Origin: a virus
Taxonomy: Duplodnaviria; Caudoviricetes
Direction: 5' to 3' (one strand)
DNA: 64,000 nucleotides
Virus record (IMG/VR): IMGVR_UViG_2814123293_000008
Location: 1-64,000 of that record
In this document: one piece after another, positions 5,643-38,770 of the stretch
How the letters are laid out: every line of letters starts with the position of its first letter
Numbering within the stretch: the stretch's first letter is position 1
Notes under the pieces: generated by a model
What the model was told of the DNA's origin: nothing
The model's database searches: none
Seen by the model: only the letters and a program-made list of their open reading frames with translations
Program-made: the position numbers and the translations under genes

Positions 5643-6023
5643 TCAACCTCCTAGCATTTCATATATATCCAGCAACGCATCGTCCTGCTGTGCGTTGATA
5701 GATTCCTGTTCGGCCCGGCTCTCAAAGAGCGCGATAGCGGTTTCATCAGTCTGCGCCAGAGCTTCCTCCAGGGCCGCCACTCGTTCTTCTACAGATGGCG
5801 GCTCAGGTTCCGGCTCCGGCTCAGGGGGCCGCTCGGTGGGAGTGATGCCCACCAGTACCCCCTCCTCAATCTGGAGGTCACACCAGCCATAGGTCGCCCA
5901 CACCGCGTCATGGAGGTGGGCGGGCACCTCAATCCAGCCCTCCAGCCAGCAGGCGCGCCGCCCGCTCTGGCTCTGGATCGGGTGCTGGCCGGTTTCCAGC
6001 GGGTCAATTTGGATGATGGTCAT
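5643..6023 (-). CDS. Putative tail fibre assembly protein
   Basis: EPEPEP linker then EERVAALEEAL coiled coil; follows the tail fibre; GGAGGT RBS. Confidence 0.6.
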   Translation of the reverse strand: MTIIQIDPLETGQHPIQSQSGRRACWLEGWIEVPAHLHDAVWATYGWCDLQIEEGVLVGITPTERPPEPEPEPEPPSVEERVAALEEALAQTDETAIALFESRAEQESINAQQDDALLDIYEMLGG

Positions 6024-6039
6024 AGCTTCTACCTCCGTT

Positions 6040-8541
6040 TTAGCCAAATGCGACAAAGTGATATTTCTCGTTAGGGTTTGTAGCGTTGTTGGGTATATAA
6101 AACCCTGTATCAGTTATCGTTATACCATCTTTATTTGACACGTCATTTTTGTTCCAACGCCATGATAATCCTGGTAATGCTGCATATCTTGCGACTGAAT
6201 TATCTTCGCTTAAAGCAACAATATATTGCGGCTTAAACCCAAGTTCTATATTGTTTATTGGGTCGCTTGTTGTTGGTTGCCGTCCAACAAAAACTCCCGT
6301 AGCCATTTTGGTGTTTTGGGGTCTACCCCTCCCCCATACCTGGAGCACCCCGGCCAGCACGCCAGCGCCGTACACTCCGGGGCTGCTGATAACCTGCCCC
6401 TCCGTCACCCAGTCCGCCGCCACGGTGCCGGAGTAGATGACCTCGATACTCTGTCCGGCTGTACCGCTCTTGAGGGCGATGGCGTCCTGGCTACCGTTGA
6501 TAAAGCTGCCCGCGATCTGGTTGCCGGAGGCGGTCAAAATGGTGGAGGTTCCGTAACCAGAGTTGCCTGCAGCAGAATAACAAAGCAGCACTTGCTTATT
6601 GGCTATTGCCGTAATATCTAACGATTTAGATGTGCCGCTTGAGTGCAAAAATTTGTAGGTTGCAGCAAGCGATAATTCGCTTCCTTCATTAAGTAGAAGG
6701 TACGCATTTCCGTTTTCACATGAGACAACACAAGCTCCTGGAATCTGTGCGATTGTATTCTCAATCACACCTGATGTACTTGTAATTTGTAATGGAGCGA
6801 ATCGTGGAATGATAGTGTTGCCAGATACGATGCATGTCCTCGCCGCGACCCCTACAGGGCTGCTTGAGTAATAAGATATGACAACATTTCCTTTTTGGTT
6901 TGATGCACACCTCGGCTTTGCTGTATAAGTGTCATTGAATACCGCCACATCGCCCCACGTCACCGCATTTGAGCTGTCAACGGCGGCAATGAGCACCTTT
7001 CCTTTATTCCCATCGTTCAAATCGACATAGCAGATGCATACACGCCCATCGTTCATGGATGTCGCAGAGATTTCGCCTGATGACTCACCCGTAATATCTC
7101 TCGTATATATACTCCCGAGACTGGAGGAAGACAGAGTGAACACTCTCATCCGCAACTTATTTGATCCAGCAATGAGAGCGCTGTAGACAACTGCTACCCG
7201 ACCGTTTGTCAGCTCTGCGAGTGCGAAGAGATTATAAAATGCGGTATCTACGCTTTCACTTTGTGAAAAGGAAATGCTGTTTCCAGAAACTGTACCAAGC
7301 TTTACATATAGTGCACGGTTTTCTACATACCCTATCAAAAACTGCGTATCGCTCAGACGGGCGATACTAAGGCCGGTTATCGTCGTTTCATTTGCGTAAT
7401 TGTTGTCTCCGACTTTTTTCCCGGTTTTTTTGCTTATAAGGAATGCAGCGTGGTTAAAACCATTATCTTTAGAATTTGCGACAACTGCGTATTCCGAATT
7501 TAAATCACACAAGGCCATATGGGTTACTGCGCGTTCCAGCAACACCGTCTCTACATTTGCCACCGGCGTGAGGGTCTTCTGCGCCTTCCCTTCCACCACA
7601 TCCACCACGTCGCCCGCCTGGATGCTCTGGCCCTCTGCGATGGGATAGGTGCCCTTGACCGCACGGGAGGCCCCCACCTGCTCTGCCGTGACGGCATGGG
7701 GGTTGTTCTTGTTCCCGGTGTGGGCGGTCAGGGCCTGCTGCACCGCCTCCGCGCTGCCCGCCGGGTCATAGTCCATCTTTGGGAGCTGCCCGGCGGGCAC
7801 CTTGCCATCGGGCCCCAGCGTCGCCACGCCATTAGGCGCGCCCTTCTCGGTGATGGGAACCGCCCCGGTATCTGCCGCCGACGGTATCCAGCTTTCCGGC
7901 CTCGCCCCTACCATTTCCGCGGTATAGTCTCCCTCGGCGGGAACCACGGCTCCGCTGCGTCCGTTGAAGGTCATCACGCCGCCGCCTGCCTGGGGGACTG
8001 CGTTGCCCTCCTCGTCAAAGCCTACCACCTGGCCCGGGGTGCCCGTCAGTTTGTCCTGCTTGGTCCTGACGGCTTCGGTGATGGCGGCTGTCATATCCCC
8101 CTGCGTGACGCAGGCGCTGGTGTCGACCGTCACCGTCCAGGTGCCGGTGTTGGAGCAGGAGATCAGCGCATAGAAGGTGTAGACGAAATCCGGAGATTCC
8201 GTCTTGCTAGGGATGGGAATGCCCTGCTCCAGCTGGAACAGGGCGAGCATGGCGGGCGACCCGCCATCCACGCTGGCAGATACGCGGAACTGATTCAGCG
8301 TGTAAGCCGTATCCGGCGCGGCGATGCGGAGCTTCAGGCGGATGCCGGAGGCTACCTTCTCGCCGCCCAGCAGGCTTGCCACCTGCTTCTCATTGACAAG
8401 GGCAGTCTGCGCCATCATCGCCACCTCAGCGACGGTGCCCTGACCCGAAGCCGCGCTGTCGAAGTTCAGAGTTTTTTCGTTCACCCACTCATTGAGCAGT
8501 CTGTTCCCGGCGTTGGTGATGACGCCGTTCCATGTTGCCAT
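6040..8541 (-). CDS. Tail fibre / receptor-binding protein with probable beta-propeller insert
   Basis: N-terminus MATWNGVITNAG of baseplate-attachment type; follows the gpI-like gene; roughly 50-aa blade-like repeats in the central AT-rich part. Confidence 0.85.
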   Translation of the reverse strand: MATWNGVITNAGNRLLNEWVNEKTLNFDSAASGQGTVAEVAMMAQTALVNEKQVASLLGGEKVASGIRLKLRIAAPDTAYTLNQFRVSASVDGGSPAMLALFQLEQGIPIPSKTESPDFVYTFYALISCSNTGTWTVTVDTSACVTQGDMTAAITEAVRTKQDKLTGTPGQVVGFDEEGNAVPQAGGGVMTFNGRSGAVVPAEGDYTAEMVGARPESWIPSAADTGAVPITEKGAPNGVATLGPDGKVPAGQLPKMDYDPAGSAEAVQQALTAHTGNKNNPHAVTAEQVGASRAVKGTYPIAEGQSIQAGDVVDVVEGKAQKTLTPVANVETVLLERAVTHMALCDLNSEYAVVANSKDNGFNHAAFLISKKTGKKVGDNNYANETTITGLSIARLSDTQFLIGYVENRALYVKLGTVSGNSISFSQSESVDTAFYNLFALAELTNGRVAVVYSALIAGSNKLRMRVFTLSSSSLGSIYTRDITGESSGEISATSMNDGRVCICYVDLNDGNKGKVLIAAVDSSNAVTWGDVAVFNDTYTAKPRCASNQKGNVVISYYSSSPVGVAARTCIVSGNTIIPRFAPLQITSTSGVIENTIAQIPGACVVSCENGNAYLLLNEGSELSLAATYKFLHSSGTSKSLDITAIANKQVLLCYSAAGNSGYGTSTILTASGNQIAGSFINGSQDAIALKSGTAGQSIEVIYSGTVAADWVTEGQVISSPGVYGAGVLAGVLQVWGRGRPQNTKMATGVFVGRQPTTSDPINNIELGFKPQYIVALSEDNSVARYAALPGLSWRWNKNDVSNKDGITITDTGFYIPNNATNPNEKYHFVAFG

Positions 8542-26163: not shown

Positions 26164-28143
26164 CTACCATTCGTCGTAATATTTTTTCAGCGCGGAACCG
26201 CGCTTGGTCTGCTTTTTGGGGGGCGGCGGAGCCGTTGCAACGCCCGTAGAGGGGGCTTTCCCCCGGGCCGCCTTTAGCCGCCTGTCTATCTCGTCCAGGT
26301 TGGCAGGCAGGGCCTTGAATGCGGCCAGGGCGTAGTTGCGGCAATCCAGGGCTTCGTTGCGCTCGTGGCCGGGTATCTTCTCCCACACCCAGGGCTGCTT
26401 CTTGGCCGGGTCATATACCAGGTGCTCGGAGAGCAGGCCGGTAAAGTAGCCGGGGCCGTAGTCGTCCCGCCTCGGGAAGTGGCAGTACTTCGAGCCCGGC
26501 TTCTGCACCTTGAGGTTGTCCATGATGATCTGCTTACCGGAGTCGACGCCGAGCTGGTACTGCCAGCAGGTGCCGATGGCGACCTGATTGACCACGATCT
26601 TCATCTTCTTCGGCGGAGAGGTGTAGGGCTTATCCGCCCCGGGCATACCCTTGATGCAGAACACCTTGCGGGAGATGCGCGCCCGGCATTGGAGGCGGAC
26701 GTCCTGGGTGAAGTGGCCGCCCTCGTCCACGAAGGTCATAGAGCTTCGGAGTCCCAGGCCGTCCTCGAAGCGGAACACTCGGTTGAACACCATCTCGTCC
26801 AGCTTGGCCCAGGTATCCGGGTCATCCGGCCTGCCCATGACGATGCCCTTTTCAATGCCCCAGGTTTCCCCGAAGTGGCCGTGCCCGACGACCTCATACT
26901 CCATGCGGTCGTCCTGGGTGTCCACGCCGGCGGTGAGCACTAGCACCCCCTCCGGCAGCTCCACGGGAGCGCCGTCCGGCCGGGTGCCGTAGTCCTCCCG
27001 GCGGGCCATGAGGCTGTCCTCGTCCTCCAGGTCGCCGCGGTCTTCCCACAGCAGGCCGAAGCAGGTGTTGTAGACCACCTGGAGCTTCCGGGTGTTGCCG
27101 ATCGCTTTGAGATACTTGAGCACGATGGAGCTCCAGGAAGCCCACTGGCTGACAAAGGCATTTAGCCAGAAAGAGCGGACGCCCTGGGCGTATGCATCGG
27201 GGTTGTCCGCCTCCCAGCGCGCGGGCTGGTGCTTCATGGTCGTCTCGTTGGAGATACACCCGCAGCCAGGACAGACGTACCAGACGCGCAGCACCTTGAA
27301 GGTCTTGCGGCCAGCCACCACGCTTTCCTCGTGCTCATAGCGGATGTCCTCGAAGTTGATCTCGTGGTACTCTCCGCAGTGGGGGCATTTGCTTTTCCAC
27401 CGCTCCATCGTGCCCTCGGCGTAGGACGCCTCGATTGCGCTGGCGTTCTTAACGGTGGGGGTGCTGACCTCCAGAGCCTTGGCGTTGTAGAACGTGGTCT
27501 GTCGGGCCTGGGCCAGTTCCCAGGGGTCACCCTCGTTGCCGGCGGAGGTCGCCCAGCGGTCGCGCTCGTCCCCCATGATGTAGCGGATGGGCTTGGATGC
27601 CAGAGCGTGGGCCTCGGTGGAACCGCACATCGTCAGGATGCCGCCGGGGTATGTCTTTTGCAGGATGGTGTTTCCGCTGTCGCGGCTTTTGGGGTCCGCC
27701 ACCTTCTTTTTGAGGGTGGGGCAGTCCCGGATCATCGGAGCGATACGGAGCTTGGAGTACTCCTTGGCGTCAATGGTCGTGGGGTGGACGAACAGGATGG
27801 AGCCGGGATCCTCGTCGATGATATAGCCGATGGTGTTGTTGAGGAATTCCGACTTTCCCACCTGGGACGCCGCCACCATGACGATGCGGCGCACCCGGGG
27901 GTCGGTAAATGCGTCCATCGGCTCCCGGAGGTAAGGGGTGCGGTCGGTGCGCCAGGGGCCAGGCTCGGCGCTGGCCTCGGTGGACAGGCGGCGGTTTTTC
28001 TCCGCCCATTCCGTTACGGTCAGGTCATCCGGCGGCTTCATGCCGGCCAAGACCTTCGCGATGACGGCGTTCAGCCGCTTTACCCGCTCGCGGGTCTCTT
28101 TCTCCCCAATGAGCCGGCGCGTTTCCTTATCCGTCATCGGCAT
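26164..28143 (-). CDS. terL: Terminase large subunit (lambda GpA family)
   Basis: GPWRTDRTPY, SQVGKSE Walker A, GDERDR Walker B, STPT, GVDTQDDR, NEALDC motifs. Confidence 0.97.
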   Translation of the reverse strand: MPMTDKETRRLIGEKETRERVKRLNAVIAKVLAGMKPPDDLTVTEWAEKNRRLSTEASAEPGPWRTDRTPYLREPMDAFTDPRVRRIVMVAASQVGKSEFLNNTIGYIIDEDPGSILFVHPTTIDAKEYSKLRIAPMIRDCPTLKKKVADPKSRDSGNTILQKTYPGGILTMCGSTEAHALASKPIRYIMGDERDRWATSAGNEGDPWELAQARQTTFYNAKALEVSTPTVKNASAIEASYAEGTMERWKSKCPHCGEYHEINFEDIRYEHEESVVAGRKTFKVLRVWYVCPGCGCISNETTMKHQPARWEADNPDAYAQGVRSFWLNAFVSQWASWSSIVLKYLKAIGNTRKLQVVYNTCFGLLWEDRGDLEDEDSLMARREDYGTRPDGAPVELPEGVLVLTAGVDTQDDRMEYEVVGHGHFGETWGIEKGIVMGRPDDPDTWAKLDEMVFNRVFRFEDGLGLRSSMTFVDEGGHFTQDVRLQCRARISRKVFCIKGMPGADKPYTSPPKKMKIVVNQVAIGTCWQYQLGVDSGKQIIMDNLKVQKPGSKYCHFPRRDDYGPGYFTGLLSEHLVYDPAKKQPWVWEKIPGHERNEALDCRNYALAAFKALPANLDEIDRRLKAARGKAPSTGVATAPPPPKKQTKRGSALKKYYDEW

Positions 28144-28750
28144 CACGCCCGCTGTCAGCTTCCCAGGCCCTCCGCTCCCGGACGCGCTCCTCGTATTTCT
28201 TTGGGTCATAGCGGTAGTTGGAGAGCTCCCGCATGGCCTTGTTGACCTCGCGGCGGATGATCTCGGCGGCCTCCGCCGGGGACTGGGCTGCGGCCACGTC
28301 CACGGCCAGGCGGCCGGGCAGGGCCATCATCGCCCCGCGAATGGCGTAAATCAGGTCGGTGGTCATCGCGGCCACGTCCTCGCTCCGGTGCATTTTCCCC
28401 TGGAGCTCGTCGGCCTCGGCCTTGGCGATCTGGGCGCGGGCCACCTTCATCGTGACCTCGGCGGCGCTCTTGGCCTCCTCCCGCTTGATTTCCTGCTCAG
28501 ACTTTTCAGGCCCCGCGCGGGCCTTGAGCATGGCGCAGTAGGCGCGCATCGTCTCGCCGAGCTCGAACAGGTTCCCGTGCGGGGTGCTGCGCTTGTGCAG
28601 CGTTCCCTGGGCCACCAACTGGCCGACCCACTGGTTACTGTTCCCGGTAGCCGAGCAGATGTCGGCGGTCTTGACGTAGACGGGAGTGCCAGCACGCAGC
28701 ACATAGACGGCGCCGTCCTCCACGACAATATCCTGTTTTCTTGGTGCCAT
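28127..28750 (-). CDS. terS: Terminase small subunit (Nu1-like)
   Basis: N-terminal wHTH-like segment then coiled coil (AKAEADELQGKMHRSEDV); directly upstream of terL. Confidence 0.85.
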   Translation of the reverse strand: MAPRKQDIVVEDGAVYVLRAGTPVYVKTADICSATGNSNQWVGQLVAQGTLHKRSTPHGNLFELGETMRAYCAMLKARAGPEKSEQEIKREEAKSAAEVTMKVARAQIAKAEADELQGKMHRSEDVAAMTTDLIYAIRGAMMALPGRLAVDVAAAQSPAEAAEIIRREVNKAMRELSNYRYDPKKYEERVRERRAWEADSGRDADDG

Positions 28751-28936
28751 GGGCTGCGCTCCTTTCCTGGCCTGTGGCCCTCCGCCCGGCGTCCGGGGCA
28801 TTTCTGCCCCGGGCCAGGCTATAAAAATAGGAGGCGGGCGTCCCACGCCCGGCGGAAGGTCACGAGATGTCGATATTTTTTACTGAGATTTCAATTAAAG
28901 TTCCCCTATTTCGCGCGCACTAACTAATCGTTTTTT

Positions 28937-28987
28937 GGGGTCGGCGAGCCCGCGGCGTGTGGGGCGGGGGTCGTCACAGTACCTTTT
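28937..28987 (-). other. Putative cos packaging site
   Basis: AAAAGGTACTGT then GC-rich CGCGGGCTCGCCGACCCC upstream of terS, resembling the lambda cosQ/cosN arrangement; followed by an AT-rich tract. Confidence 0.4.
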
Positions 28988-29056
28988 GCCGTCGTCGCCT
29001 GTTGCAACGCATTTCCCCGCCCTCAGCGCGACGATGCCGAGAGGGGGAGGGAGCAA

Positions 29057-29108
29057 CACAGCCAGACGCAGATACGCCGCTCTCGTGCGATGTATGCGTC
29101 TGGCTGTG
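29057..29108. repeat. 14-bp perfect inverted repeat just downstream of the IbrB-like gene
   Basis: CACAGCCAGACGCA (29057-29070) / TGCGTCTGGCTGTG (29095-29108). Confidence 0.85.
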
Positions 29109-29116
29109 GTATTGTG

Positions 29117-29641
29117 TTATAACTTCGTCAGCAATTCCGCATGGCTATATCCCTTAACGCCCTTGGTCATCATGCCGAGGAAGTCATCGCGCGAGAAATC
29201 AGAGAGCCGGAATACTTCTTCGGGTTTCATTCCGAGCTGTTTGCCGATCTCCTGAACGGACTTGCCCTCGTCCAGCAGCCGCTTTACGATGGCTTTCATC
29301 GGCTCAAGCAGATGTGTACCACGAGCGCGGTTGTGTGTGACGGTGCCGTAAATATCCTCGGTCGCGTCATCATGCCGCACGATCACCACCGGCACCTTGC
29401 CTTTGAGCATGGTGTGCAGCGGCTCCTCTCCGGCCACGGTCCAGCGGTGAAAGCCGTCGATGATGGTGTAGTCGGGACGCACGACGATGGGAAGCGTCCA
29501 GCCATTGGTCATGATCGATTGCACCAGCAGTTTCAGATTCTCACGGTTGACCTTGTTGGGGTTGTAGTCATTGGGCTTGAGCTGCTCCCGGTCTACCCAT
29601 TGCAGGGAGGATAACGGGGCGAACAGATCCGCGTCAGCCAT
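29117..29641 (-). CDS. ibrB: ParB/Srx-domain protein, IbrB/YbdM-like
   Basis: LKPNDYNPN, GWTLPIV, IIDGFHR, THNRARG motifs; start overlaps the upstream stop. Confidence 0.85.
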   Translation of the reverse strand: MADADLFAPLSSLQWVDREQLKPNDYNPNKVNRENLKLLVQSIMTNGWTLPIVVRPDYTIIDGFHRWTVAGEEPLHTMLKGKVPVVIVRHDDATEDIYGTVTHNRARGTHLLEPMKAIVKRLLDEGKSVQEIGKQLGMKPEEVFRLSDFSRDDFLGMMTKGVKGYSHAELLTKL

Positions 29642-30788
29642 TTGCCTCACCTCCCTTCCGGAAGCGCTTGGCGTAATCGGCATAGGCGCAGGATATGTCC
29701 TGATAGATGGCGCGCAGGGTGCGGAGCTTGGGATCACCAGCAGTCAGACCGCCGTACATTTTCTTGTAGTCGCGCGGCCGCGCCATTCCGTCCATCTGAA
29801 TGAACATCTTGCGGTACTGCTTGGCGATCTTGCGCTTATGCTCCGTGTTGAAGAAGTCTCCCGGACGGACGAACAGCATCTCCTTCAGGAGCGCACGGTA
29901 GTCCTTGGTGTCCTCGCCCTCCAGCTCCCGGCGCTTCCTTGTGGTGCGGTGGAACATTTCGCTGTCCCAGTACAGCATGGCAAGGTAGGCATTCGGCTCG
30001 CGCCGAAGGACGCGCTCCATGAGAGATGGGTCATATTCGCCCAGGTGTACCAGCACAGGTACGGTATCAACAGAGAAGAACTGCGACACGCGCAGCTGAT
30101 TCCGATTGACGCCGACCTGATACATCTGCAGGTAGACCTCGGGGACTTCGATGCGCTGGTCTCGCAGGTACAGCCAGACGTCCGCCGTCTTCCAGTCGTA
30201 GATGGGATAGATGGTGTTCGTGCCGGTGATGCCCTTTGCGCCCATATTTAGTGCCGCCATATATTGGAGCCGCTGAATGGACTCTGCCGCGCGGACGCCG
30301 GTGATCATGATGCCGTCCATCGTCACGCGGGGCAGGAAGGATTGATAGTTGTCGATCCTTGGCCGGAGCTGCGGGTGATTGCGGATGGCAAAGGGCGGCG
30401 GCTGCCGCACCCAGACATCGCGCTTGCGCCGATCCCAGCAGACGAAGGTTTCATCGCTGGACAGCTCATTGAGACAGCTGAAATGCTTGACCTCGATGCA
30501 CCACCATTGAAACTTGGCACCGGCAAGCAGGAACTTCTTCCGCCACGCCTTGGTCGTTGCTTCAATGGAATCGAAGATTGCCTCCTCGTCCACGAAAAGG
30601 ACGGTCAACTGCGAGGGATTGATCTCTCCAGCCTGGATCAGCTTATAGGTCAGGTCGGCAAGAACGATGCTGTCCTTGCCGCCGGAAAACGAGAGGTATA
30701 CGGGGACGCCGTTGGAAAATACGTTTTTGATCCGCTGGCGCGCCGCAGTCACAACGTCGATGTCTGAGCTGATGCGCTTTACAGCCAT
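29634..30788 (-). CDS. ibrA: PAPS-reductase-fold PP-loop protein, IbrA/YbdN-like
   Basis: SFSGGKDS PP-loop, FVDEE, GVRAAESIQR, YPIYDW motifs; paired with the IbrB-like gene. Confidence 0.88.
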   Translation of the reverse strand: MAVKRISSDIDVVTAARQRIKNVFSNGVPVYLSFSGGKDSIVLADLTYKLIQAGEINPSQLTVLFVDEEAIFDSIEATTKAWRKKFLLAGAKFQWWCIEVKHFSCLNELSSDETFVCWDRRKRDVWVRQPPPFAIRNHPQLRPRIDNYQSFLPRVTMDGIMITGVRAAESIQRLQYMAALNMGAKGITGTNTIYPIYDWKTADVWLYLRDQRIEVPEVYLQMYQVGVNRNQLRVSQFFSVDTVPVLVHLGEYDPSLMERVLRREPNAYLAMLYWDSEMFHRTTRKRRELEGEDTKDYRALLKEMLFVRPGDFFNTEHKRKIAKQYRKMFIQMDGMARPRDYKKMYGGLTAGDPKLRTLRAIYQDISCAYADYAKRFRKGGEANG

Positions 30789-31384
30789 ATCCGCTCACCA
30801 CATTTCGGGCAGAGGATAAACCTCTTAGCGGGCTCGGTGGAAGACGCCGTGCCGCTCTGTGCGGGTGCGACTTCCTCAGCCTGCGCCGCAGCAGCTTCTT
30901 CCCGGGCGGCGTATTTCTCGCGCGTCTCGGTGATGGCCGCAGCCTGCTCCGGCTCAATGGTGCCGTACTCAAGCAGGGCGTCGCTGGCTTCGTCAGCCTC
31001 CATCACCATCGCACGGAGAAGATCCTCTTCGTAGCCGGGAATGTCCAGGTCGTCTTTCAGGTCGAGGATAAAAGCGTCCAGCGCGGCCAAATCGTCAACA
31101 CCCAGGTCAAAGACGCGGTTATCGGCCAGCATGAGCTTTTTCTTCTCTGCCTCAGTCAGCCCGGACACAACATAGCAGTCCGCTTCTGTGCGGCCGAGGG
31201 ACAGCAGCGTTTCATACAAGCCGTTGCCGGCGAGAATAACGCCGTCCTCGTCGACCACGATGGGGCGGATCTGACCGAACATTTCGACAGAGCGTCGGAA
31301 CTCCTTCAGCTGCTTGTCGGTGTGCATTCGGACATTCCGATCCGGTCGCCGCAGCTCGGTCAGAGGCTTCTTTATGACCTTCAT
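30779..31384 (-). CDS. ParB-N domain protein with C-terminal CPKCG knuckle
   Basis: NVRMH, IRPIVVD, ILAGNG, LADNR motifs; ends ILCPKCGERIWL. Confidence 0.82.
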   Translation of the reverse strand: MKVIKKPLTELRRPDRNVRMHTDKQLKEFRRSVEMFGQIRPIVVDEDGVILAGNGLYETLLSLGRTEADCYVVSGLTEAEKKKLMLADNRVFDLGVDDLAALDAFILDLKDDLDIPGYEEDLLRAMVMEADEASDALLEYGTIEPEQAAAITETREKYAAREEAAAAQAEEVAPAQSGTASSTEPAKRFILCPKCGERIWL

Positions 31385-32163
31385 GCCTGCACCCCCTTCA
31401 AGAAGGCGCGAGCGCTGTCGATCTTTTCAGCCGCCGCAAGGACGATGCTGTGGTCGATATCGTAGACCTCGTGCCAGCCGTTCTCGATGCTGCCCGTCCA
31501 TTGGCGGGCGGGCCACGGGTGAGTGCCGCACAGATATCCGTTCTTCCAGCCGTAGATCGGCGGAAGCGGGAGCTGATGGTAGTGAATATAGGCAAGGATG
31601 TGCTCATGCTTCCACGCAGCGAGCGGGCTGAATCGCGTAACACCTTTGCCATCGGTATAGATATTGCTGTTGCGACCGACATAATTGCCGTCCGCACGGC
31701 GGCGGCCGAGAATGATGACGTCCAGCTCGTGCGCCTTGAAGTATTCACGCTGCGCTCGGTGCTGCACGATAGAAAACCATCGTCCGGCCGCGGCGGAGCC
31801 CTTGGGGAAAAGCATCTCTTGATGCTTCGCCAGCCAGTCGATATCCTGATGCGTGTTGATGACTTCACAGCCTGCCGGCTTATGCTCCTCGATCCACGCG
31901 GCAAAAGCGGGGTATTCCAGGTCGCACACGCCGATCATACTATCGGTGACGCCGGCCGCTTCACAGAGTTTGCCAAGGACAATACTGTCCTTACCAGCGC
32001 TCCATGCGTAGGCAGCACACTTCCCAGCCGTCACGGCCTTGATGTCCGCCACGGTCGCGGCAGTAAGTTCGTCCAGCTCTGCGCGGGAAACGGCTTCTTC
32101 GATAGTTGCAACGGCATCCAGCCACGCGCCGTTGTCGATCCTCTGCTTCCTTCCGAGACTCAT
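31381..32163 (-). CDS. Second PP-loop / adenine nucleotide alpha-hydrolase (PAPS-reductase-like) protein
   Basis: AWSAGKDS PP-loop, ILGRRRAD, SPLAAW motifs; ATG overlaps the symporter stop (ATGA). Confidence 0.82.
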   Translation of the reverse strand: MSLGRKQRIDNGAWLDAVATIEEAVSRAELDELTAATVADIKAVTAGKCAAYAWSAGKDSIVLGKLCEAAGVTDSMIGVCDLEYPAFAAWIEEHKPAGCEVINTHQDIDWLAKHQEMLFPKGSAAAGRWFSIVQHRAQREYFKAHELDVIILGRRRADGNYVGRNSNIYTDGKGVTRFSPLAAWKHEHILAYIHYHQLPLPPIYGWKNGYLCGTHPWPARQWTGSIENGWHEVYDIDHSIVLAAAEKIDSARAFLKGVQA

Positions 32164-33542
32164 GCTCTCACCGCCTTTCTCGAGGCGATAACAGCGACAA
32201 GGCCGCTGGACAGGACGGTCGTCAGACTGCCTGCCGCTTTCACAGCCGGAATGCCGGCGAGATTGCCGTAGGCGAAGATTGGAAGCCCGACACACAGCGC
32301 AGTCAGCACACCGGCAAAAACGCCCTTGCCCGTCAGCTTCTTACCGAGCAGCGTCATGACCGTCGGCAGCAGCGTCGAAGCGCGGAGCGTTCCGTAGAAC
32401 AGAAACAGGTATGTCACCGTCAGGCCGGGAATGTTGGCGATGGCGATAGCCACGATCAGCAGGCAAAGCATGGTGCGGCGCGAAGTCTGCACCGTGTCCT
32501 TCCCAATGCCGAGCCAGTCTGTCGTGAGCGACGCTGCCGCGCAAAGGTTGCTATCTACCGTGGAGAGCAGGCCGGAGATAATCATAAACAGGAACGGGAC
32601 CAGCACCCATGTCGGAAGCAGCGAGGAAACGAATTCAAAGTTGACCATGCCGGTGTCGCTGGCCACAAAGTCGGAGCCTGCGGCAAGGAAGCCCACCGTT
32701 CCCATACAGATCGGAACGAGCGCAAACAAAAGCGCACCGGCAAAAAACGATCTGCCGATGCGGTCGCGCCTGATTGCGAAAGCTCGCTGCCAGAAGCACT
32801 GATCCCCGAACGGGCCAGAGATCAGACCGACAGCCATCGGCAGACCGTAGCCCAGCAGGACCTCAATGCCCGTGGAGGAGATGAGCGAAGTATATTCTCC
32901 GGAGACAGCACCGAGCCCTGCCCGTACCGTGTCAAAGCCGCCGGTCATGCGAAGGCTCAGAACGACCAGCAGAGCGCCACCCATGAGAATAATGCCCAGC
33001 TGGACGACATCGGTGATGATGGAGGCTTTCAGCCCGGAGAAGCGGGAGTAGGAATATGCGATAGCTGCCAGGGCGAGCGTCATGCTCCAGAATGGCAGCC
33101 CCGTAATGAGAGCCAGCGTCTTTCCCCCGGCGAGCAGCTGCACCGCCGTTGAAAGAACGGCCAGCGCGCCGAGCTGGAAGGAGTAGACGCCCTTGACCTT
33201 GCCGGAGTGATAGCGCTCCGCCATGTAGCCGGTCAAGGTGATGCCCTCCGGGTACTGCGCCCGGATCCTTTTTGCAAAGGGGATAAACAGGATCAGGCAC
33301 AGCACATTCGGTACCGTAAACCAGAACATCCCCGGGATGCCGCGCGTATAGGCCATCTCCGAGGAAGTGAACAGTGAGGGAGCCCAAATCCAAGTGGCGG
33401 CGATGCTCATGGCGGCAATCGCCGAGCCGATGCGCCGGTCCGCCACATGGAAGCCCTCTGCGTCGGTCGTCTTTCGGGTGAACATCAGCGTGACACCGAT
33501 CATCAGCACCGCATAGACGGCCAGAATGACAATTCCGAACAT
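32160..33542 (-). CDS. Sodium:solute symporter family transporter
   Basis: About 13 hydrophobic segments; ADRRIG, SIAATWIWAPSL, MAERY, DQCFWQRAFA, STVDS motifs; AAAAGGAG RBS. Confidence 0.9.
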   Translation of the reverse strand: MFGIVILAVYAVLMIGVTLMFTRKTTDAEGFHVADRRIGSAIAAMSIAATWIWAPSLFTSSEMAYTRGIPGMFWFTVPNVLCLILFIPFAKRIRAQYPEGITLTGYMAERYHSGKVKGVYSFQLGALAVLSTAVQLLAGGKTLALITGLPFWSMTLALAAIAYSYSRFSGLKASIITDVVQLGIILMGGALLVVLSLRMTGGFDTVRAGLGAVSGEYTSLISSTGIEVLLGYGLPMAVGLISGPFGDQCFWQRAFAIRRDRIGRSFFAGALLFALVPICMGTVGFLAAGSDFVASDTGMVNFEFVSSLLPTWVLVPFLFMIISGLLSTVDSNLCAAASLTTDWLGIGKDTVQTSRRTMLCLLIVAIAIANIPGLTVTYLFLFYGTLRASTLLPTVMTLLGKKLTGKGVFAGVLTALCVGLPIFAYGNLAGIPAVKAAGSLTTVLSSGLVAVIASRKAVRA

Positions 33543-33772
33543 TTTGGAAATCTCCTTTTATGATGTCACCGCTGCCCTCTGCTGGCGAACATCGGACCCG
33601 GCGCATGACCGGCGCGCAAGGAGTAACGCGCAGGCCTCAACCTCCTTCCCAAACGAATGACGGCCACCCCGCGAGGGATGGCCGCCTGGCTTATGTAGGA
33701 TTTTACGAGTCTAATCCTAATACATGGTGCGGGGAATATCAAGAAACGAGTTGCAACAGCGAAGAACAGCTT
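33543..33772 (-). promoter_or_regulatory. Putative late promoter and multi-hairpin leader
   Basis: Lies between the ArpU/RinA-like activator and the first late gene; roughly 10-bp-spaced CTGTT/TCGTT repeats, then five consecutive hairpins. Confidence 0.45.
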
Positions 33773-34150
33773 TTAACTACCGAGGTAGCGGTAACACACC
33801 ATCTTTACCGAATCCTCCGAATTGCGGCCTCCTATGACCGCTGCGACCTCTTTCCATGCGAGCCCTCTCAGGAAGCGCAGCCGGAAGATCAGGCGCGTCT
33901 GGTCATCGTCGATGCCTTGAATGAACGGCATGATCTGTCCCTCGCTGGCCTTGACCTCTTCCTCCAGAAAGCCGACACGCGCATCCATATCCACAATCTC
34001 AGCTGCGAGGTCGCCGACCTTATCCTTTATGCCGGGAGTATGCGGCATACCTGTGAGGGCAGCCGCGCCGGGGCAAGCCGCGTCACGCAAGGACTGTAGC
34101 ATCTCCCTTGCCCTTGCCAGTTTCTCTATCAGCTCAAAATGCTGATTCAA
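33773..34150 (-). CDS. Late transcription activator (ArpU/RinA-like, sigma region-4-like HTH)
   Basis: RLIFRLRFLRGLAWKEVAAVIG...SEDSVK..CYRY; last early gene; true start may be slightly upstream. Confidence 0.78.
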   Translation of the reverse strand: MNQHFELIEKLARAREMLQSLRDAACPGAAALTGMPHTPGIKDKVGDLAAEIVDMDARVGFLEEEVKASEGQIMPFIQGIDDDQTRLIFRLRFLRGLAWKEVAAVIGGRNSEDSVKMVCYRYLGS

Positions 34151-34187
34151 TTCCGAAAGCGTCGTAATAGCTCACCCCAATCTGTTC

Positions 34188-34376
34188 TTACTTCCTCTTG
34201 CCGCCCTGTCGGCTGACAGTCTCTCCAATCTGCATTTGCCGGTATGATGGCTGCACTACCTCTACCGACACCACACGGGTATCTCCGTACCGCTCCAAAT
34301 CCTGAGCAATCTGCTCCTTTATGCCAATGGCCTGCCCCGCCGGGGCGTTCACATGAACGGTGATGACGAGCATCAT
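34188..34376 (-). CDS. Hypothetical protein
   Basis: 62-aa ORF with GGAG RBS, overlapping the upstream gene. Confidence 0.6.
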   Translation of the reverse strand: MMLVITVHVNAPAGQAIGIKEQIAQDLERYGDTRVVSVEVVQPSYRQMQIGETVSRQGGKRK

Positions 34377-35074
34377 CGCACCGTCTGATAGGCGCGAGCT
34401 TTCTTGTTATAGGCCAGATCGACCGGCGCGCCGCAGGAAAGGCAGCTGTAGGTGAAGACGTCCCCCTCGAAATTCGTCCGGTATTTGAAGTGCTTTCCGC
34501 ACTTGCAGCGGATGTGCGCCGACGTGAGATCGTGCAGCGGCGTCTCTCCGTTGCAGGTTGCGCACCGATAGGACGAGATAGGCTGTTTTGCGTAAAAGCC
34601 GCGCAGCTCGCCGCATTGTGCGCACCGAATAAGCAGAAATCCCTTGTATGTCTTCGGCGTGGTCTCCTCGGCTTCCGCTCTATCAGGGATAGCCCAGGCC
34701 TCTTTCGGCCCGAACATAGTCTCCGCGCGGCTGGGCTTTGCACGAAGCAAAGTCGGCTCTGCCTTGTGTATCTCCGGCAGGGAGGCCTTCGTTGCAGCCC
34801 CGCGCCACACAGGGCGGCAGTCTATGCCATTCCCGAGGCGGCAATGCCATCTGTTCGCGCCGCTGAATTCCTCTTTCTCTCCATGCTCGCAGTATTCGCA
34901 GTTGCCGTTCAGCCAAAGCAGAGCGGCAATATCGGTCGCGGCGGCGTTGATCGCCTCCTCCGCTCCCGCAAACTCCTGCACCAAGTCAAAAAGACGGCTG
35001 TAATCGTCATACTGAATACGCCCGTTCTCATTCAGCTCATTGATAAAATCGAGCAGGTTTTCAAATCGTTCCAT
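34373..35074 (-). CDS. Zn-ribbon-containing hypothetical protein
   Basis: Multiple CxxC pairs (CEYC, CAQC, CATC, CKC, CLSC). Confidence 0.7.
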   Translation of the reverse strand: MERFENLLDFINELNENGRIQYDDYSRLFDLVQEFAGAEEAINAAATDIAALLWLNGNCEYCEHGEKEEFSGANRWHCRLGNGIDCRPVWRGAATKASLPEIHKAEPTLLRAKPSRAETMFGPKEAWAIPDRAEAEETTPKTYKGFLLIRCAQCGELRGFYAKQPISSYRCATCNGETPLHDLTSAHIRCKCGKHFKYRTNFEGDVFTYSCLSCGAPVDLAYNKKARAYQTVR

Positions 35075-35086
35075 AGAAGCTCCTTT

Positions 35087-35491
35087 TCATTCCATCGCCA
35101 CGCAACCACAGACTGTACATTGACCGTGAAAGTGTCCGTTGCTGCGCGCCCTTGCTCCGACCATCGTGCTCTTTCCTCCGCAGGAGGGGCAGTCCATGCG
35201 AACTTCCTCCGGCGGCTTGCTCCATTCCTCCGTAAGCGCGTCGGGCAGAAACCTTTGACCGCAGAAGACACACCGCTCCAAGCTGTACGGCATATTCCCG
35301 CAGGAGGGGCATTCGGGATATCTGCCGCTCCAATAATCCTCAGCCCAGCGAATATGTACCGGCTCAGCCTTGCCGTTTTCCTTATCATCGGCGGCGGGCT
35401 GGTGTTCGCAGGTATCGCAGTAAAACTCCTTCTTGCAGACCAAGCCCTTATCCCAATGGCAGTACATAGTGAGATCTCCGGTATCAATCAT
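35087..35491 (-). CDS. Cys-rich hypothetical protein
   Basis: CDTC, CPSC twice, CVFC, CTVC; ATG after GGAGG. Confidence 0.65.
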   Translation of the reverse strand: MIDTGDLTMYCHWDKGLVCKKEFYCDTCEHQPAADDKENGKAEPVHIRWAEDYWSGRYPECPSCGNMPYSLERCVFCGQRFLPDALTEEWSKPPEEVRMDCPSCGGKSTMVGARARSNGHFHGQCTVCGCVAME

Positions 35492-35903: not shown

Positions 35904-36165
35904 TGCGTTCCTCCCTCGATTTGAAGTTGCCTGCCGCCCGGCAGCTCCCCCAGTGGGGAGCGAAGCCGGTGCCGGTGGCCTTGTGCGGATCTTCCGTATA
36001 CTCGCAGGAAATGACCTCGCCGTTGGGCGTGACGATCTTTTTACTGCCGGAACGGGGCTTTTCGATGTAATAGCGCGGGGTGGCGTCACACGGCATGGAC
36101 TTCCCGCCGGGTGTTCTGATCCAGACGATAGCCGCGCCGCAGCCTTTGCAGGTAGATGCTCTCAT
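35896..36165 (-). CDS. Zn-finger hypothetical protein
   Basis: CKGCGAAIVWI..GKSMPCD...PHWGSC. Confidence 0.7.
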   Translation of the reverse strand: MRASTCKGCGAAIVWIRTPGGKSMPCDATPRYYIEKPRSGSKKIVTPNGEVISCEYTEDPHKATGTGFAPHWGSCRAAGNFKSREERNG

Positions 36166-37535
36166 TCGTCGGTCACCTCCCCGAAAAGCTCATGTGTTCC
36201 GTCCTGGAGAGCCTTTTCATCGTCGGACATCTCGTAGCCCAGCTTGACGAGCAACGCATAGATGCGGTCCAGCTTCTCGTTTTCCTCGTGCTTCATGGTG
36301 TAGCTGTTCCAGTAGCTGCGGAAATAGCCCTCGGATTTGCCATCACCCAGGCGCGCATAGATCATTCGCAGGAGCGCCTTTTCGGGCGTCTTGCCGATTG
36401 CGTCGGTCACGGCCTGGAGCGTAAATGCGGCATCGTCCTCACCGTCCTCGTCATCTTCGGCAAGGGTCTCGGCGCCAGTAGCCTGCGCGATCTCCTCTTC
36501 GGTGAGCCAACCGGTATCGTCCCAGTATTCGGCGTAGGCCCACAGCGCCACGATGTCCGCAAGGCGCTTTTTGATGGCGGTTGTGGAAACGGTAGCCACG
36601 AAGTCGGCGCGAAGCTCGTAGGCGCGGGCGGTTGCTTCGGACAGCGCCTTTTCTGCGGCGTCCTTTCGCTCCTGCTTCAGCTGCTCCTCGCGCCCTTTCG
36701 CTTCTTCCTCCGGGGTAAGGGCGGTGGGCTCATCCTTGACCATCAGCACAATATAACCCCATGTTTCGACGAAGAAGAAATACTCAATGGTATCGGCATC
36801 CTCCGGGCGATCCACTTTGACTTCTCCGTTGGTGTAGAAGCTATTGACTCTCTTATAGCCGGTCTTGTCGGTAATCTGCGTCGCAAAGGTACTCAGCTGC
36901 TCTACCCATAGGGCTTTGCGCGCCTCTGCTGCTTCATCATTGATGGCTTGTTTCAGCTTGTACTTGAAGTTCTCGGTGCCGATGTAATCAAGCATTTCAT
37001 TCTTACGCTCCGGACTTTTCAGCTTGTCCAGCTCCATGTACTCGAAAAGGCTGACGCCGCGCTCCTCGGACTTCTTGAATTTGTCCTTATCCAGCTCCAG
37101 GAGCTTCACACGGCGCCGGACGGTGGTGGCGGAAAAACCGGACTTTTCCGCGATGTCCTCGACGGTATCGCCCATGTCAAGCATCATCTGGAAGCCCTGC
37201 GCCTGCTCATAGACCGTCAGATCGGACCGCTGCATATTCTCCGTGAGCATCGTACTCAGCTGCTCCCGCTCCGACATCTCGACCACGACGCAGGGAAGCT
37301 CCTCCAAACCAGCCAGCTTTGCGGCCGCAAGACGGCGGTGGCCGATGATGACGCGGTAGCTTTCTCCGTCCCACTTCTTTGTGATTTCCCCGATCAGCGG
37401 AACAACGGTGAGGTTTTGGAGTACGCCGTTGACCTTGATGCTCTCAGCCAGCTCGGTCACATCGCCCAGGTCCTTACGGGGGTTATCGGGATGCCCCCAC
37501 AGTTTACTGACCGGAATGTACTTGATTTCTGCCAT
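36162..37535 (-). CDS. ParB/Spo0J-family protein (phage early region)
   Basis: HPDNPRKDL, GVLQNLTV, IIGHRRLAAA, TENMQRSDL and HTH; no adjacent ParA. Confidence 0.88.
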   Translation of the reverse strand: MAEIKYIPVSKLWGHPDNPRKDLGDVTELAESIKVNGVLQNLTVVPLIGEITKKWDGESYRVIIGHRRLAAAKLAGLEELPCVVVEMSEREQLSTMLTENMQRSDLTVYEQAQGFQMMLDMGDTVEDIAEKSGFSATTVRRRVKLLELDKDKFKKSEERGVSLFEYMELDKLKSPERKNEMLDYIGTENFKYKLKQAINDEAAEARKALWVEQLSTFATQITDKTGYKRVNSFYTNGEVKVDRPEDADTIEYFFFVETWGYIVLMVKDEPTALTPEEEAKGREEQLKQERKDAAEKALSEATARAYELRADFVATVSTTAIKKRLADIVALWAYAEYWDDTGWLTEEEIAQATGAETLAEDDEDGEDDAAFTLQAVTDAIGKTPEKALLRMIYARLGDGKSEGYFRSYWNSYTMKHEENEKLDRIYALLVKLGYEMSDDEKALQDGTHELFGEVTDE

Positions 37536-37585
37536 AAAACGCTCCTTTCTTATGCCGAGCTTTGCCCCTCGGCTGGGACAGCTTA

Positions 37586-38770
37586 TTATTTTCGGCTCAT
37601 GCCGTTCACGCGGCACCAGTGCCGCTGGGCCTGCTTCTTCCTCGCGGTGCGGCAGGCCAAGCAGAAGCGATTTTCCTTGCGCTCATAGAAGGTAGCCCCG
37701 CAGCGGGCGCAGTATTGCGGGGGTATGCGGCGGAACTCTGTGCAGGAATCGCAGTCCTTGCACCCGGCGGCGCATCCGTCGAAGTCATCCCAGTTCATGC
37801 ACATAAACCGCTGCCAGTAGGGGTCATACCCGAGGTCGTTCATCCTCTTGCGGAGCAGTGCCGCCAGCGTGGAGAGGTCGCGCCGGACCTGCTGTCTGGT
37901 GCGCGAGATATAGAAGCTGTGCTTGACGTCCATCTCCGGGGCTCCGGATCCCCAGGGTCCGTCGCCGAGCATTTCACGCACCTTGTCCATGTTTTCGGTC
38001 AGGTAGTCGTTGTAGACCTTGGAGCGGACACATTTCTCCGACCGGCCTACGGCCTTCCCGATGGCGGCGTAGCTGTCGCCATTGCGAATACCGTCAACCA
38101 GTGCCTCAAAGTCCTCCGGTGACCATGTCCCACGCTTCCCGGTCAACTCCATAGCCACAGGCCGGTCTTTGATACCAAGGTCGCGGCAACGGCGGGAAAT
38201 CGCTCCATGGGAGCGGTGCATCATGTCGGAAATTTCGGCCCACGAATACTTGTGCAGGCTGACCAGCATTTTTAGGCGGGAGTCCTCTGTCGGTGTCCAT
38301 GCGTCCTTTCTCTGAAGCGCATAGGCCTCATAATCTTTTCGGCGCTGCCCCGGCAGCCAGTCTGGTTCCTCCCCCAGTGCCAGGGGCTCCATTTTGGAGA
38401 AATCCAGGAAAGAGCGGTTTTTCTCGGCCCACGCCCAGAATTCACCCAGGTAGACCACACGGATCGTCGATGCTCCCCGCCGCTTGTAGTGCAGGGGGAA
38501 GCCCCGGTTTTCCACCCAGCTTTTCATGAAATACTTATCCGATGATGCCCCGAAGCCAAGTGCGCGTGACAGTTGGTGCAGGGTGATGTATTCTCCACTC
38601 TCCAGGTAGGGCGGAAGCCCCAGCCGGTTTACCCTTACCATGATAGCGTTTTTTGTGCGGTTCAAGTGGCGGCAGATTCCATCGACCGTCACGGTACCCC
38701 AGCTCTCCCGGAGGTAGTTTTCTTCCTCCGCCGTCCATGTCCTTTTCCCAAGCGGCGGCGATACGCGCAT
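37586..38770 (-). CDS. DNA-binding protein with three Myb/SANT-like HTH repeats and Cys-rich tail
   Basis: WTAEEE.., WTPTED.., WSPEDF.. repeats; C-terminal CxxC clusters. Confidence 0.7.
   Translation of the reverse strand: MRVSPPLGKRTWTAEEENYLRESWGTVTVDGICRHLNRTKNAIMVRVNRLGLPPYLESGEYITLHQLSRALGFGASSDKYFMKSWVENRGFPLHYKRRGASTIRVVYLGEFWAWAEKNRSFLDFSKMEPLALGEEPDWLPGQRRKDYEAYALQRKDAWTPTEDSRLKMLVSLHKYSWAEISDMMHRSHGAISRRCRDLGIKDRPVAMELTGKRGTWSPEDFEALVDGIRNGDSYAAIGKAVGRSEKCVRSKVYNDYLTENMDKVREMLGDGPWGSGAPEMDVKHSFYISRTRQQVRRDLSTLAALLRKRMNDLGYDPYWQRFMCMNWDDFDGCAAGCKDCDSCTEFRRIPPQYCARCGATFYERKENRFCLACRTARKKQAQRHWCRVNGMSRK

Follow-up and report, generated by a model that had tools for sequence, protein, structure and literature searches.

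This article concerns a five-gene cassette in a 64,000-nt stretch of phage DNA, referred to below as “the window” (IMG/VR record IMGVR_UViG_2814123293_000008, a 76-kb provirus). The prophage that carries it is one of gut Clostridia. On the minus strand, from 33542 to 29117, five open reading frames (ORFs) translate free of stops and encode, in order, an importer of the sodium:solute symporter family (SSS), a PP-loop enzyme of the PAPS-reductase fold (PP1), a stand-alone ParB-N protein (ParBa), a second PP-loop enzyme of the IbrA/YbdN family (IbrA), and a ParB/Srx protein of the IbrB/YbdM family (IbrB). Neighboring genes overlap at each junction: SSS/PP1 and PP1/ParBa by 4 nt, ParBa/IbrA by 10 nt, and IbrA/IbrB by 8 nt. 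A RinA-like regulator lies upstream, and terS and a gpA-type terL follow downstream. Families were assigned from Pfam, NCBIfam, and PHROG profile matches (Table 1).

An earlier reading of the window, made from its letters alone (“the sequence-only reading”), had placed five overlapping genes between a late activator and terS and labeled them as an SSS transporter, two PP-loop enzymes (SAGKDS and SGGKDS), and two ParB-type proteins. Coordinates, overlaps, and placement hold, and profile matches and motifs agree on every label.

Table 1. Features of the cassette, its leader, and its flanking genes (window coordinates)
Feature	Position	Strand	Evidence or remark
RinA-like late activator, 125 aa	33773..34150	-	phrog_36 E 7e-6; context, outside the cassette
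Conserved promoter-like box GTAAAATCCTA	33696..33706	-	Nearly invariant in 22 diverged leaders
Structured 5' leader RNA	33543..33692	-	RNAalifold covariation
P1 hairpin	33686-33659	-	Followed by U-rich tract
Invariant GGGAAGGAGG	33650-33641	-	Between P1 and P2
P2 hairpin, loop UUACUCCUU	33636-33607	-	
P3, loop UUCGCCA	33606-33563	-	
Shine-Dalgarno GGAG	33555-33552	-	
SSS importer, 460 aa	32160..33542	-	PF00474 E 3e-22; phrog_20720 E 2e-169
PP1, PAPS-reductase-fold PP-loop enzyme, 260 aa	31381..32163	-	PF01507 8e-10; motif WSAGKDS
ParBa, stand-alone ParB-N protein, 201 aa	30779..31384	-	phrog_620 1e-44
IbrA/YbdN-family PP-loop enzyme, 384 aa	29634..30788	-	PAPS_reduct 5e-13; phrog_2302 1e-85; SFSGGKDS
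IbrB/YbdM-family ParB/Srx protein, 174 aa	29117..29641	-	PF02195 ParB_N 6.5e-8; phrog_2159 5e-70; IDGFHRW
terS (context)	28127..28846	-	phrog_57 E 1e-23
terL, gpA type (context)	26164..28209	-	PF05876 2e-79; PF20454 6e-69

The gene arrangement is far from chance: the cassette is one co-inherited unit. Four scans were run, namely a symporter-seeded scan of IMG/VR, an IbrA-profile scan of one genome per GTDB species, the same profile against metagenome contigs, and a further IMG/VR scan seeded with the membrane protein of the Faecalibacterium phage FP_Taranis (“TarTM”). Please note that the locus set was partly collected via the importer and that the unbiased counts are the IbrA-seeded ones. In IMG/VR, each of the 149 symporter relatives stands at the head of this cassette, and in every locus that was long enough the symporter is followed by PP1, ParBa, IbrA, and IbrB on the same strand, down to 56% identity. 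The IbrA profile returned 220 relatives from the GTDB genomes, the best 80 of which are prophages of Oscillospiraceae, Lachnospiraceae, Ruminococcus, Christensenellales, and Clostridioides difficile (locus L172). Where the flank sufficed, an importer was found no more than 3.5 kb upstream of IbrA in 67/68 genome loci and 49/51 metagenome loci, or 116/119 IbrA-seeded loci in total. Scans with two single, distant IbrA representatives (P0061 and P0062) gave no matches, and a search for cassette-less sister phages via the activator protein gave only near-identical, cassette-bearing prophages.

The importer, ParBa, IbrA, and IbrB occur together in 194 of 197 non-redundant loci, and their order is likewise kept in 194, down to about 40-45% protein identity. 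The commonest arrangement is that of the window (SSS-PP1-ParBa-IbrA-IbrB, 125 loci), followed by TarTM-PP1-ParBa-IbrA-IbrB (28), TarTM-ParBa-IbrA-IbrB (19), SSS-OMB-PP1-ParBa-IbrB-IbrA (15; OMB is described below), SSS-ParBa-IbrA-IbrB (7), and other orders (3). The core of the cassette is therefore importer, ParBa, IbrA, and IbrB; PP1 is an accessory, because 26 of the 194 cassettes are without it. The neighborhood scans thus bear out the co-occurrence across phages on which the sequence-only reading depended, and they amend its five-gene composition in one respect, PP1 being optional. The two enzyme/ParB sets in its description are not equivalent pairs: ParBa lacks the H-R dyad and looks like the ParB domain found in phage ParB-methyltransferase fusions. 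Finally, the slot upstream of the terminase, which that reading had singled out, is kept even where the terminase family differs: the cassette lies directly before terS/terminase also when the latter is a Terminase_6, unrelated to the gpA type, and the median distance from cassette end to terL is 954 nt.

Judged by sequence and profile comparison, the last two genes are true homologs of the E. coli IbrA/IbrB proteins and their K-12 paralogs YbdN/YbdM, as had been suspected. The IbrA profile aligns with YbdN by hhalign at 99.8% probability (E 7e-29, 270 columns, query 5-281 to YbdN 4-293), extending past the PAPS_reduct domain, and IbrB is 41% identical to YbdM (E 2e-32). In the cassette and in E. 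coli alike, the two genes overlap and the enzyme comes first; the E. coli pairs differ in having no transporter, ParBa, or PP1 and in not lying beside a terminase. Our literature search found no biochemical function for the pair, and ybdNM is known only as a CitR-repressed operon (PMC9068703).

Closer to the window are two isolated Faecalibacterium phages, FP_Taranis (NC_047914) and Pioen (PP479940), in which activator, membrane protein, ParB, IbrA, IbrB, terS, and terL follow in the same order. Their IbrA is 45% and their IbrB 72% identical to those of the window, the 5' half of the leader is present, and the activators of the window and of FP_Taranis, the latter annotated as “RinA-like transcriptional activator,” share 42% identity. 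They differ in that PP1 is missing and the importer is a shortened SSS homolog of roughly 330 aa. Existing annotations go no further than “transporter membrane protein,” “PAPS reductase,” and “ParB-like.” A search of the literature retrieved no description of an importer-coupled cassette or of its leader.

Conservation was assessed over 120-170 sequences, and the PP-loops of both PP1 and IbrA are canonical. In IbrA, the invariant motifs are SGGKDS, DEEA, GxRxxESxQR, REPNAYL, and GDPK, with YWDxEMF also conserved. Its AlphaFold model (pLDDT 78.5) has a generic PP-loop fold, for which Foldseek ranks NcsA, TtuA, TilS, and LarE as high as APS reductases. DUF3440 (PF11922) had no match at E<=1 in the window IbrA and 15 relatives (16 scanned); L258, a phage relative that has the leader but no transporter, does match it (E 6e-6). 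PP1 has the invariant motifs SxGKDS, LGRRRxDGN, and GYLCGTHPW, and its model (pLDDT 94) finds PAPS/APS reductases, CysD, TtuA, and FAD synthase as best Foldseek matches. For both models, Foldseek recovered only generic PP-loop/AANH folds at TM-scores of about 0.3-0.6, from which a substrate cannot be inferred. PDB sequence searches gave no close solved relative of the four soluble proteins.

PP1 shares its fold and the family motif GY(L)xxG(T)H with CysH/CysD, the usual annotation of such viral genes. It is not a CysH: the loop is of the ATP type (SxGKDS), the C-terminal ECGLH tail is absent (there is no cysteine beyond residue 212), and its bit scores with the NCBIfam CysH models are 18-26, the cutoffs being 154-254; the same is true of IbrA. 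Compared with CysH/CysD together, PP1 reaches 20-28 bits against cutoffs of 154-290 and has neither the ECGLH cysteine nor a CysN partner. Similarly, the CGTH of PP1 was discarded as the catalytic ECGLH, its position fitting an internal family motif of the GYLSVGDTH type, with no C-terminal Cys tail. In published surveys (bioRxiv 10.1101/2021.01.05.425418), genes of this kind appear under sulfur metabolism as auxiliary viral cysH/cysD; for the cassette enzymes, these family tests argue against that placement.

The two ParB-type proteins are quite different from one another. IbrB carries IDGFHRW and THNRARGTH, both invariant in 60 sequences, and its DGFHRW is of the Srx/DndB type rather than GERRxRA; a helix-turn-helix (HTH)-like segment occupies the C-terminus, and weak sequence matches lead to solved ParB/Spo0J/Noc structures. 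ParBa consists of a ParB-N domain, an acidic/Ala-rich linker, and a C-terminal CPxCG motif. The Pfam scan gave it no match, and besides its PHROG family it is similar to the ParB-N portion of phage ParB-methyltransferase families (phrog_498, 5e-27; PADLOC MTase_II, 2e-15). At the position of the GxxR/HR of other ParB/Srx proteins it carries a conserved LxGNGL, and the GxxRxxA arginine patch of ParB CTPase clamps is absent. The ParB/Srx fold also occurs in the archaeal protein 1vk1, and ParBa weakly matches a sulfiredoxin structure (6ky4). At the ParBa C-terminus (window 30779-30830, minus strand), the conserved CPxCGxxxW after the low-complexity Ala/Glu-rich linker resembles half a zinc-ribbon-like motif, without obvious partner cysteines. 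The early region of the prophage holds a third gene of the ParB family, at 36162-37616 (minus strand); its 484-aa product has ParB_N and HTH_ParB domains (phrog_6218, 2.5e-86) and has FP_Taranis gp25 as its counterpart.

The importer takes three forms: SSS, the shortened homolog TarTM, and, in low-GC contigs, SSS with a signal-peptide, barrel-like protein (OMB). In the window, residues 31-413 of the symporter match positions 1-404 of the 406 in the SSF model (PF00474), and GLLSTVDSNL, the motif of SSS transmembrane helix 8, is nearly invariant in 132 sequences; on the model of PutP and vSGLT it is taken to be a Ser/Thr sodium site. TIGR00813 gives 117 bits, under its cutoff, and no NCBIfam SSS equivalog model that would name a substrate reaches its own (panF 53.8/328, PutP 52.6/515, ActP 28/750 bits). 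Names in the protein Atlas are limited to “sodium:solute symporter” or an automatic “pantothenate permease.” At L306:2722-4455, the low-GC form of the symporter reaches 578 aa, with about 120 aa added at the C-terminus relative to the 460-aa protein of the window.

Besides FP_Taranis and Pioen, 61 IMG/VR contigs encode TarTM, a protein of roughly 330 aa without a Pfam match or significant BLAST similarity to the window symporter. An hhalign comparison with the SSS profile covers 204 columns (probability 93.7%, E 2e-7), and the two have SIAATW, G(M/I)xxxVLTD, and xxGPF in common; on this profile evidence TarTM is a shortened, diverged SSS homolog, and an unrelated transporter family is ruled out for the FP_Taranis protein. 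OMB is a 202-aa ORF between symporter and PP1 on contigs of about 41% G+C, a part of them hundreds of kb in length, where the IbrA/IbrB order is inverted, the terminase is Terminase_6, and the cassette still directly precedes terS. It has a typical signal peptide, an alternating-strand pattern, and an aromatic C-terminal segment. Its nearest protein Atlas clusters are outer-membrane barrels at only 0.91-0.93, under 0.95, which makes them a lead and not a finding. OMB looks like an outer-membrane partner of the importer in hosts that are probably diderm. That the importer is near-always kept, changes form, and gains an apparent outer-membrane partner is the strongest point in favor of solute uptake being essential to what the cassette does; importer retention argues that its function requires the importer.

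The roughly 200 nt upstream of the importer have kept their nucleotide sequence even where the cassette proteins share only 45-60% identity, in both SSS and TarTM types. The elements come in the order box GTAAAATCCTA, P1, U-rich tract, invariant GGAAAGGAGG, P2, P3, and Shine-Dalgarno. The P2 loop, CUCCUU, is complementary both to the purine tract GGAAAGGAGG and to the real Shine-Dalgarno. Over the roughly 150 nt of the leader and its three covarying hairpins, RNAalifold gives 26 pairs, 22 of them with compensatory changes; pairing holds in 91.4% of cells against 36-50% in slid controls and was matched by 0/500 shuffles. An Rfam 15 scan (both strands, E<=5) found no family match in 33543-33772; its hits elsewhere were at chance level. 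We regard the leader as a candidate new regulatory RNA, which may act by sensing a ligand, by antitermination of the put-like or Q type, or by switching translation.

By nhmmer, the full leader precedes 73/156 SSS loci and 27/56 TarTM loci; the others have a simpler one, made up of GTAAAAT, a hairpin with a T-run, GGAAAGGAG, and then CTCC. A leader-pattern scan of IMG/VR gave 51 matches. Five, in unrelated low-GC phages, were rejected as simple promoter-hairpin-Shine-Dalgarno arrangements, and the 46 true leaders each lie ahead of an IbrA/IbrB-type module. One of these modules, at L258:7986-12118 (see also L251, L279, L280, and L287), has the three-hairpin leader before a YbdN-like protein (PAPS_reduct + DUF3440, 426 aa), an IbrB-like protein, a 211-aa protein, a second ParB-N protein, and terS, with no transporter.

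Transcript boundaries were taken from contigs of public runs, the metatranscriptomes coming from two studies (bovine and pig). In both, RNA contigs begin at 33687/33691/33699, span the cassette down to 28921, and go on into the terminase and later genes. Their starts lie 9-19 nt downstream of the box, and separate RNA contigs over the activator region stop at 33727/33729. A DNA contig from the same bovine sample is unbroken through 28921-35149, and no loose contig ends occur at the 33687-33699 or 33727/33729 boundary sites. The box is the probable -10 region of a late promoter. There is a weak hint that late transcription starts about 10 nt downstream of it and reads through P1 into a long late transcript headed by the cassette. 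These would probably be the first genes of the packaging/structural transcript, co-linear with the packaging genes, and the term “late” that had been given to the cassette suits RNA contigs that run from leader to packaging genes.

Cassette and backbone do not always travel together. Prophages from at least five genera, including Agathobaculum, Faecousia, Yanshouia, Hominicoprocola, and Dysosmobacter, share activator, leader, and cassette (window 29117-34150; L100-L106) at 98-100% identity; their terL is only 77-81% identical to that of the window, and IbrA is 100% identical in such loci. Activator, leader, and cassette also occur on a 5.5-kb contig binned as Bacteroidales, a binning that is probably wrong. 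The reverse is seen in L111 and L112, where terL is 97-98% and the cassette 84-87% identical. Since cassette and terL identities disagree, the cassette moves as a module between phage backbones, and these comparisons place a recombination boundary directly after IbrB.

What, then, might the cassette do? Tentatively, and stopping short of calling it probable, we favor a reading in which PP-loop adenylation serves to join an imported solute to phage DNA. A Na+-coupled SSS permease would enter the host membrane late in infection and import a small extracellular solute, assisted in apparently diderm hosts by the phage-encoded outer-membrane barrel. IbrA would be the core enzyme, spending ATP to adenylate an oxyanion on its target, with IbrB as its ParB/Srx partner, able to bind nucleoside triphosphates (NTPs) and carrying an HTH. 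ParBa, as a free-standing ParB domain of the phage-DNA-methyltransferase kind, would recruit the enzymes to phage DNA once it is replicated. Attack on the adenylated position by the solute taken up, or by something derived from it, would leave a covalent mark on the DNA before packaging, which may shield the phage DNA in the next host; PP1, where present, could be a second PP-loop enzyme that pre-activates or tailors the solute.

Enzymes of this clan, among them CysD, FAD synthase, and DndC/TdpC, move AMP onto oxyanions of sulfate or phosphate. For Tdp, an adenylate on the DNA backbone has been reported (An et al. 2025, as cited in PMC12914056). DNA as the target is suggested by the methyltransferase-type ParB module of ParBa, by the resemblance of IbrB to ParB/Spo0J/Noc, and by the parallel with DndC/DndB; of these, the ParBa match is the main pointer, and an indirect one. 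In its fullest form, the proposal is a new phage DNA hypermodification in which a gut-lumen metabolite, brought in by the phage-encoded importer, is joined to DNA through adenylation chemistry of IbrA/YbdN-IbrB/YbdM, with an outer-membrane channel helping in diderms and the leader as a gating riboregulator. In that form we think it possible, if rather unlikely.

It is important to remember that several observations weigh against attachment to DNA, or against parts of the scheme. Five of the 46 leader-linked modules have no transporter (in order, a YbdN-like protein with DUF3440, IbrB, a 211-aa protein, ParB, and terS), so import is not needed by every relative. Metatranscriptome contigs may contain DNA. 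ParBa is without the usual catalytic/NTP-binding arginine motif, and the IbrA alignment has no invariant cysteine cluster for an Fe-S center. PP-loop enzymes that act on tRNA or cofactors (TtuA, NcsA, TilS, and LarE) have a similar fold score, and the sequence comparisons here do not separate DNA from RNA, tRNA, or a free metabolite as target. In addition, E. coli ybdNM is chromosomal, is regulated with citrate-lyase genes, and has no known DNA role (PMC9068703). Finally, the domain scan found no P-loop NTPase (DndD/SspC/BrxC) between activator and terS.

The last point also bears on a related question. Dnd, Ssp, BREX-4, and Tdp are like the cassette in combining a PP-loop enzyme of the PAPS-reductase clan with a ParB/Srx protein bearing DG(x)HR (DndC with DndB) and, by analogy only, in the proposed adenylation of a DNA oxyanion. 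The cassette differs from them in having no cysteine desulfurase, P-loop NTPase, DndE, or conserved Cys cluster, and those systems need no importer. Known phosphorothioation systems require the NTPase DndD/SspC/BrxC (PMC12914056), and DndC and BrxP models match only weakly (TIGR03183, 23.5 bits against a cutoff of 290). By these criteria the cassette does not belong with the known DNA phosphorothioation systems. Among other ParB relatives, ParBa shares the ParB-N module of phage ParB-methyltransferase fusions, and in the Dpd system DpdB, a ParB-like ATPase, assists the DNA base-exchange enzyme (PMC12839542). ParBa differs from both in being free-standing, in having no methyltransferase or transglycosylase in its cassette, and in replacing GxxR/HR with GNGL.

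Auxiliary metabolism is the first alternative: an imported nutrient or cofactor precursor (e.g., sulfur- or carboxylate-bearing) would be adenylated and converted for the infected cell, the ParB/Srx proteins serving as small-molecule kinases or NTPases rather than acting on DNA. The folds nearest to PP1 (PAPS/APS reductase, CysD, and FAD synthase) all use small molecules, and the ParB/Srx fold extends to sulfiredoxin and archaeal 1vk1, as the matches above indicate. The surveys that count such genes as cysH/cysD find them commonest in human gut viruses (bioRxiv 10.1101/2021.01.05.425418), and ybdNM rises jointly with the cys regulon in an E. coli citR mutant (PMC9068703). Nevertheless, PP1 is the most CysH-like enzyme and yet the dispensable one; its canonical ATP-type loop, its missing ECGLH tail, and the lack of a CysN partner all tell against sulfur assimilation of that kind. 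Two DNA-binding-type ParB proteins, a fixed terminase-side position, and co-transcription are also hard to explain as metabolism, and we consider this alternative unlikely.

A second alternative is a regulatory or packaging accessory, with IbrA/IbrB as “co-activators of prophage gene expression” or the ParB proteins aiding terminase recognition or cutting, and the permease supplying a signal that tunes late expression. The invariant catalytic-type motifs of two ATP-pyrophosphatase enzymes and of IbrB point to enzymology instead, and the cassette is unchanged before unrelated terminases and does not travel with them (loci with 100% identity in IbrA have only 77-81% in terL). On the other side, the cassette adjoins terS and has an elaborate leader RNA of its own, and the E. 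coli pair was named for a genetic phenotype, the activation of eib genes by ibrAB. Regulation is also the role of DndB, which is related through its ParB/Srx domain (PMC12839542). Overall, we judge a regulatory or packaging role quite improbable.

Slightly more improbable still is RNA or tRNA modification, in which IbrA/IbrB, with or without PP1, would use the imported compound on host or phage tRNA or other RNA late in infection, in the manner of TilS, TtuA, and NcsA with lysine or sulfur. The level Foldseek ranking of NcsA, TtuA, TilS, and LarE with APS reductases for IbrA is in its favor, and tRNA is the best-known setting for PP-loop chemistry on nucleobases. However, the domain scans of the cassette proteins found no RNA-binding domain (THUMP, PUA, or TilS C-terminal), the partner proteins are ParB-type with an HTH, and expression that begins with the packaging transcript comes late for a role in reprogramming translation.

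The least probable alternative is a conflict role other than self-marking, in which the cassette would deplete, modify, or export a host or competitor molecule (anti-defense or superinfection exclusion): temperate-phage genes in this slot are often accessory conflict genes and the cassette spreads as a mobile module over phage backbones and host genera, but the PADLOC scan called no defense system at the cassette and gave only partial PP-loop/ParB similarity (BrxP, DndC, and methyltransferases), an SSS permease is by family an importer, and the cassette, having no promoter besides the late one, is probably silent in lysogens.

Returning to the attachment of an imported solute to DNA, the interest of the cassette is that IbrA/IbrB-type pairs, common in phages and present in E. 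coli K-12 (ybdNM), are here tied to a dedicated importer. This link makes the question of function testable, in the form of the imported compound and its destination. If the hypermodification reading is true, it would give a first biochemical function to the pair in E. coli K-12 and thousands of phages, and many “viral cysH” auxiliary genes would have to be re-assigned. A DNA mark derived from an environmental compound, if that is what the cassette makes, would link phage resistance to host defenses with gut chemistry. Systems for such work already exist as cultured lysogens (Agathobaculum, Dysosmobacter, Yanshouia, Flavonifractor, Anaerotruncus, and C. difficile) and as the isolated phages FP_Taranis and Pioen. 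Among the lysogens, Agathobaculum ammoniilyticum Sanger_34, Dysosmobacter segnis BX15, and Yanshouia hominis BX1 have cassettes nearly identical to that of the window.

A few individual loci depart from the usual arrangement. In L239 and L240 (about 1700-2150), nothing but short pieces of TarTM (33 aa) and IbrB (45 aa) lies between the 5' half of the leader and terL, and a deletion seems to have removed the cassette. At L026:8383-9425, an in-frame-looking deletion fuses PP1 to IbrB. A 1.6-kb insertion separates IbrA and IbrB in L014/L091 (about 5738-7350), and at L169:1061-4616 an insertion of roughly 3.5 kb lies within PP1.

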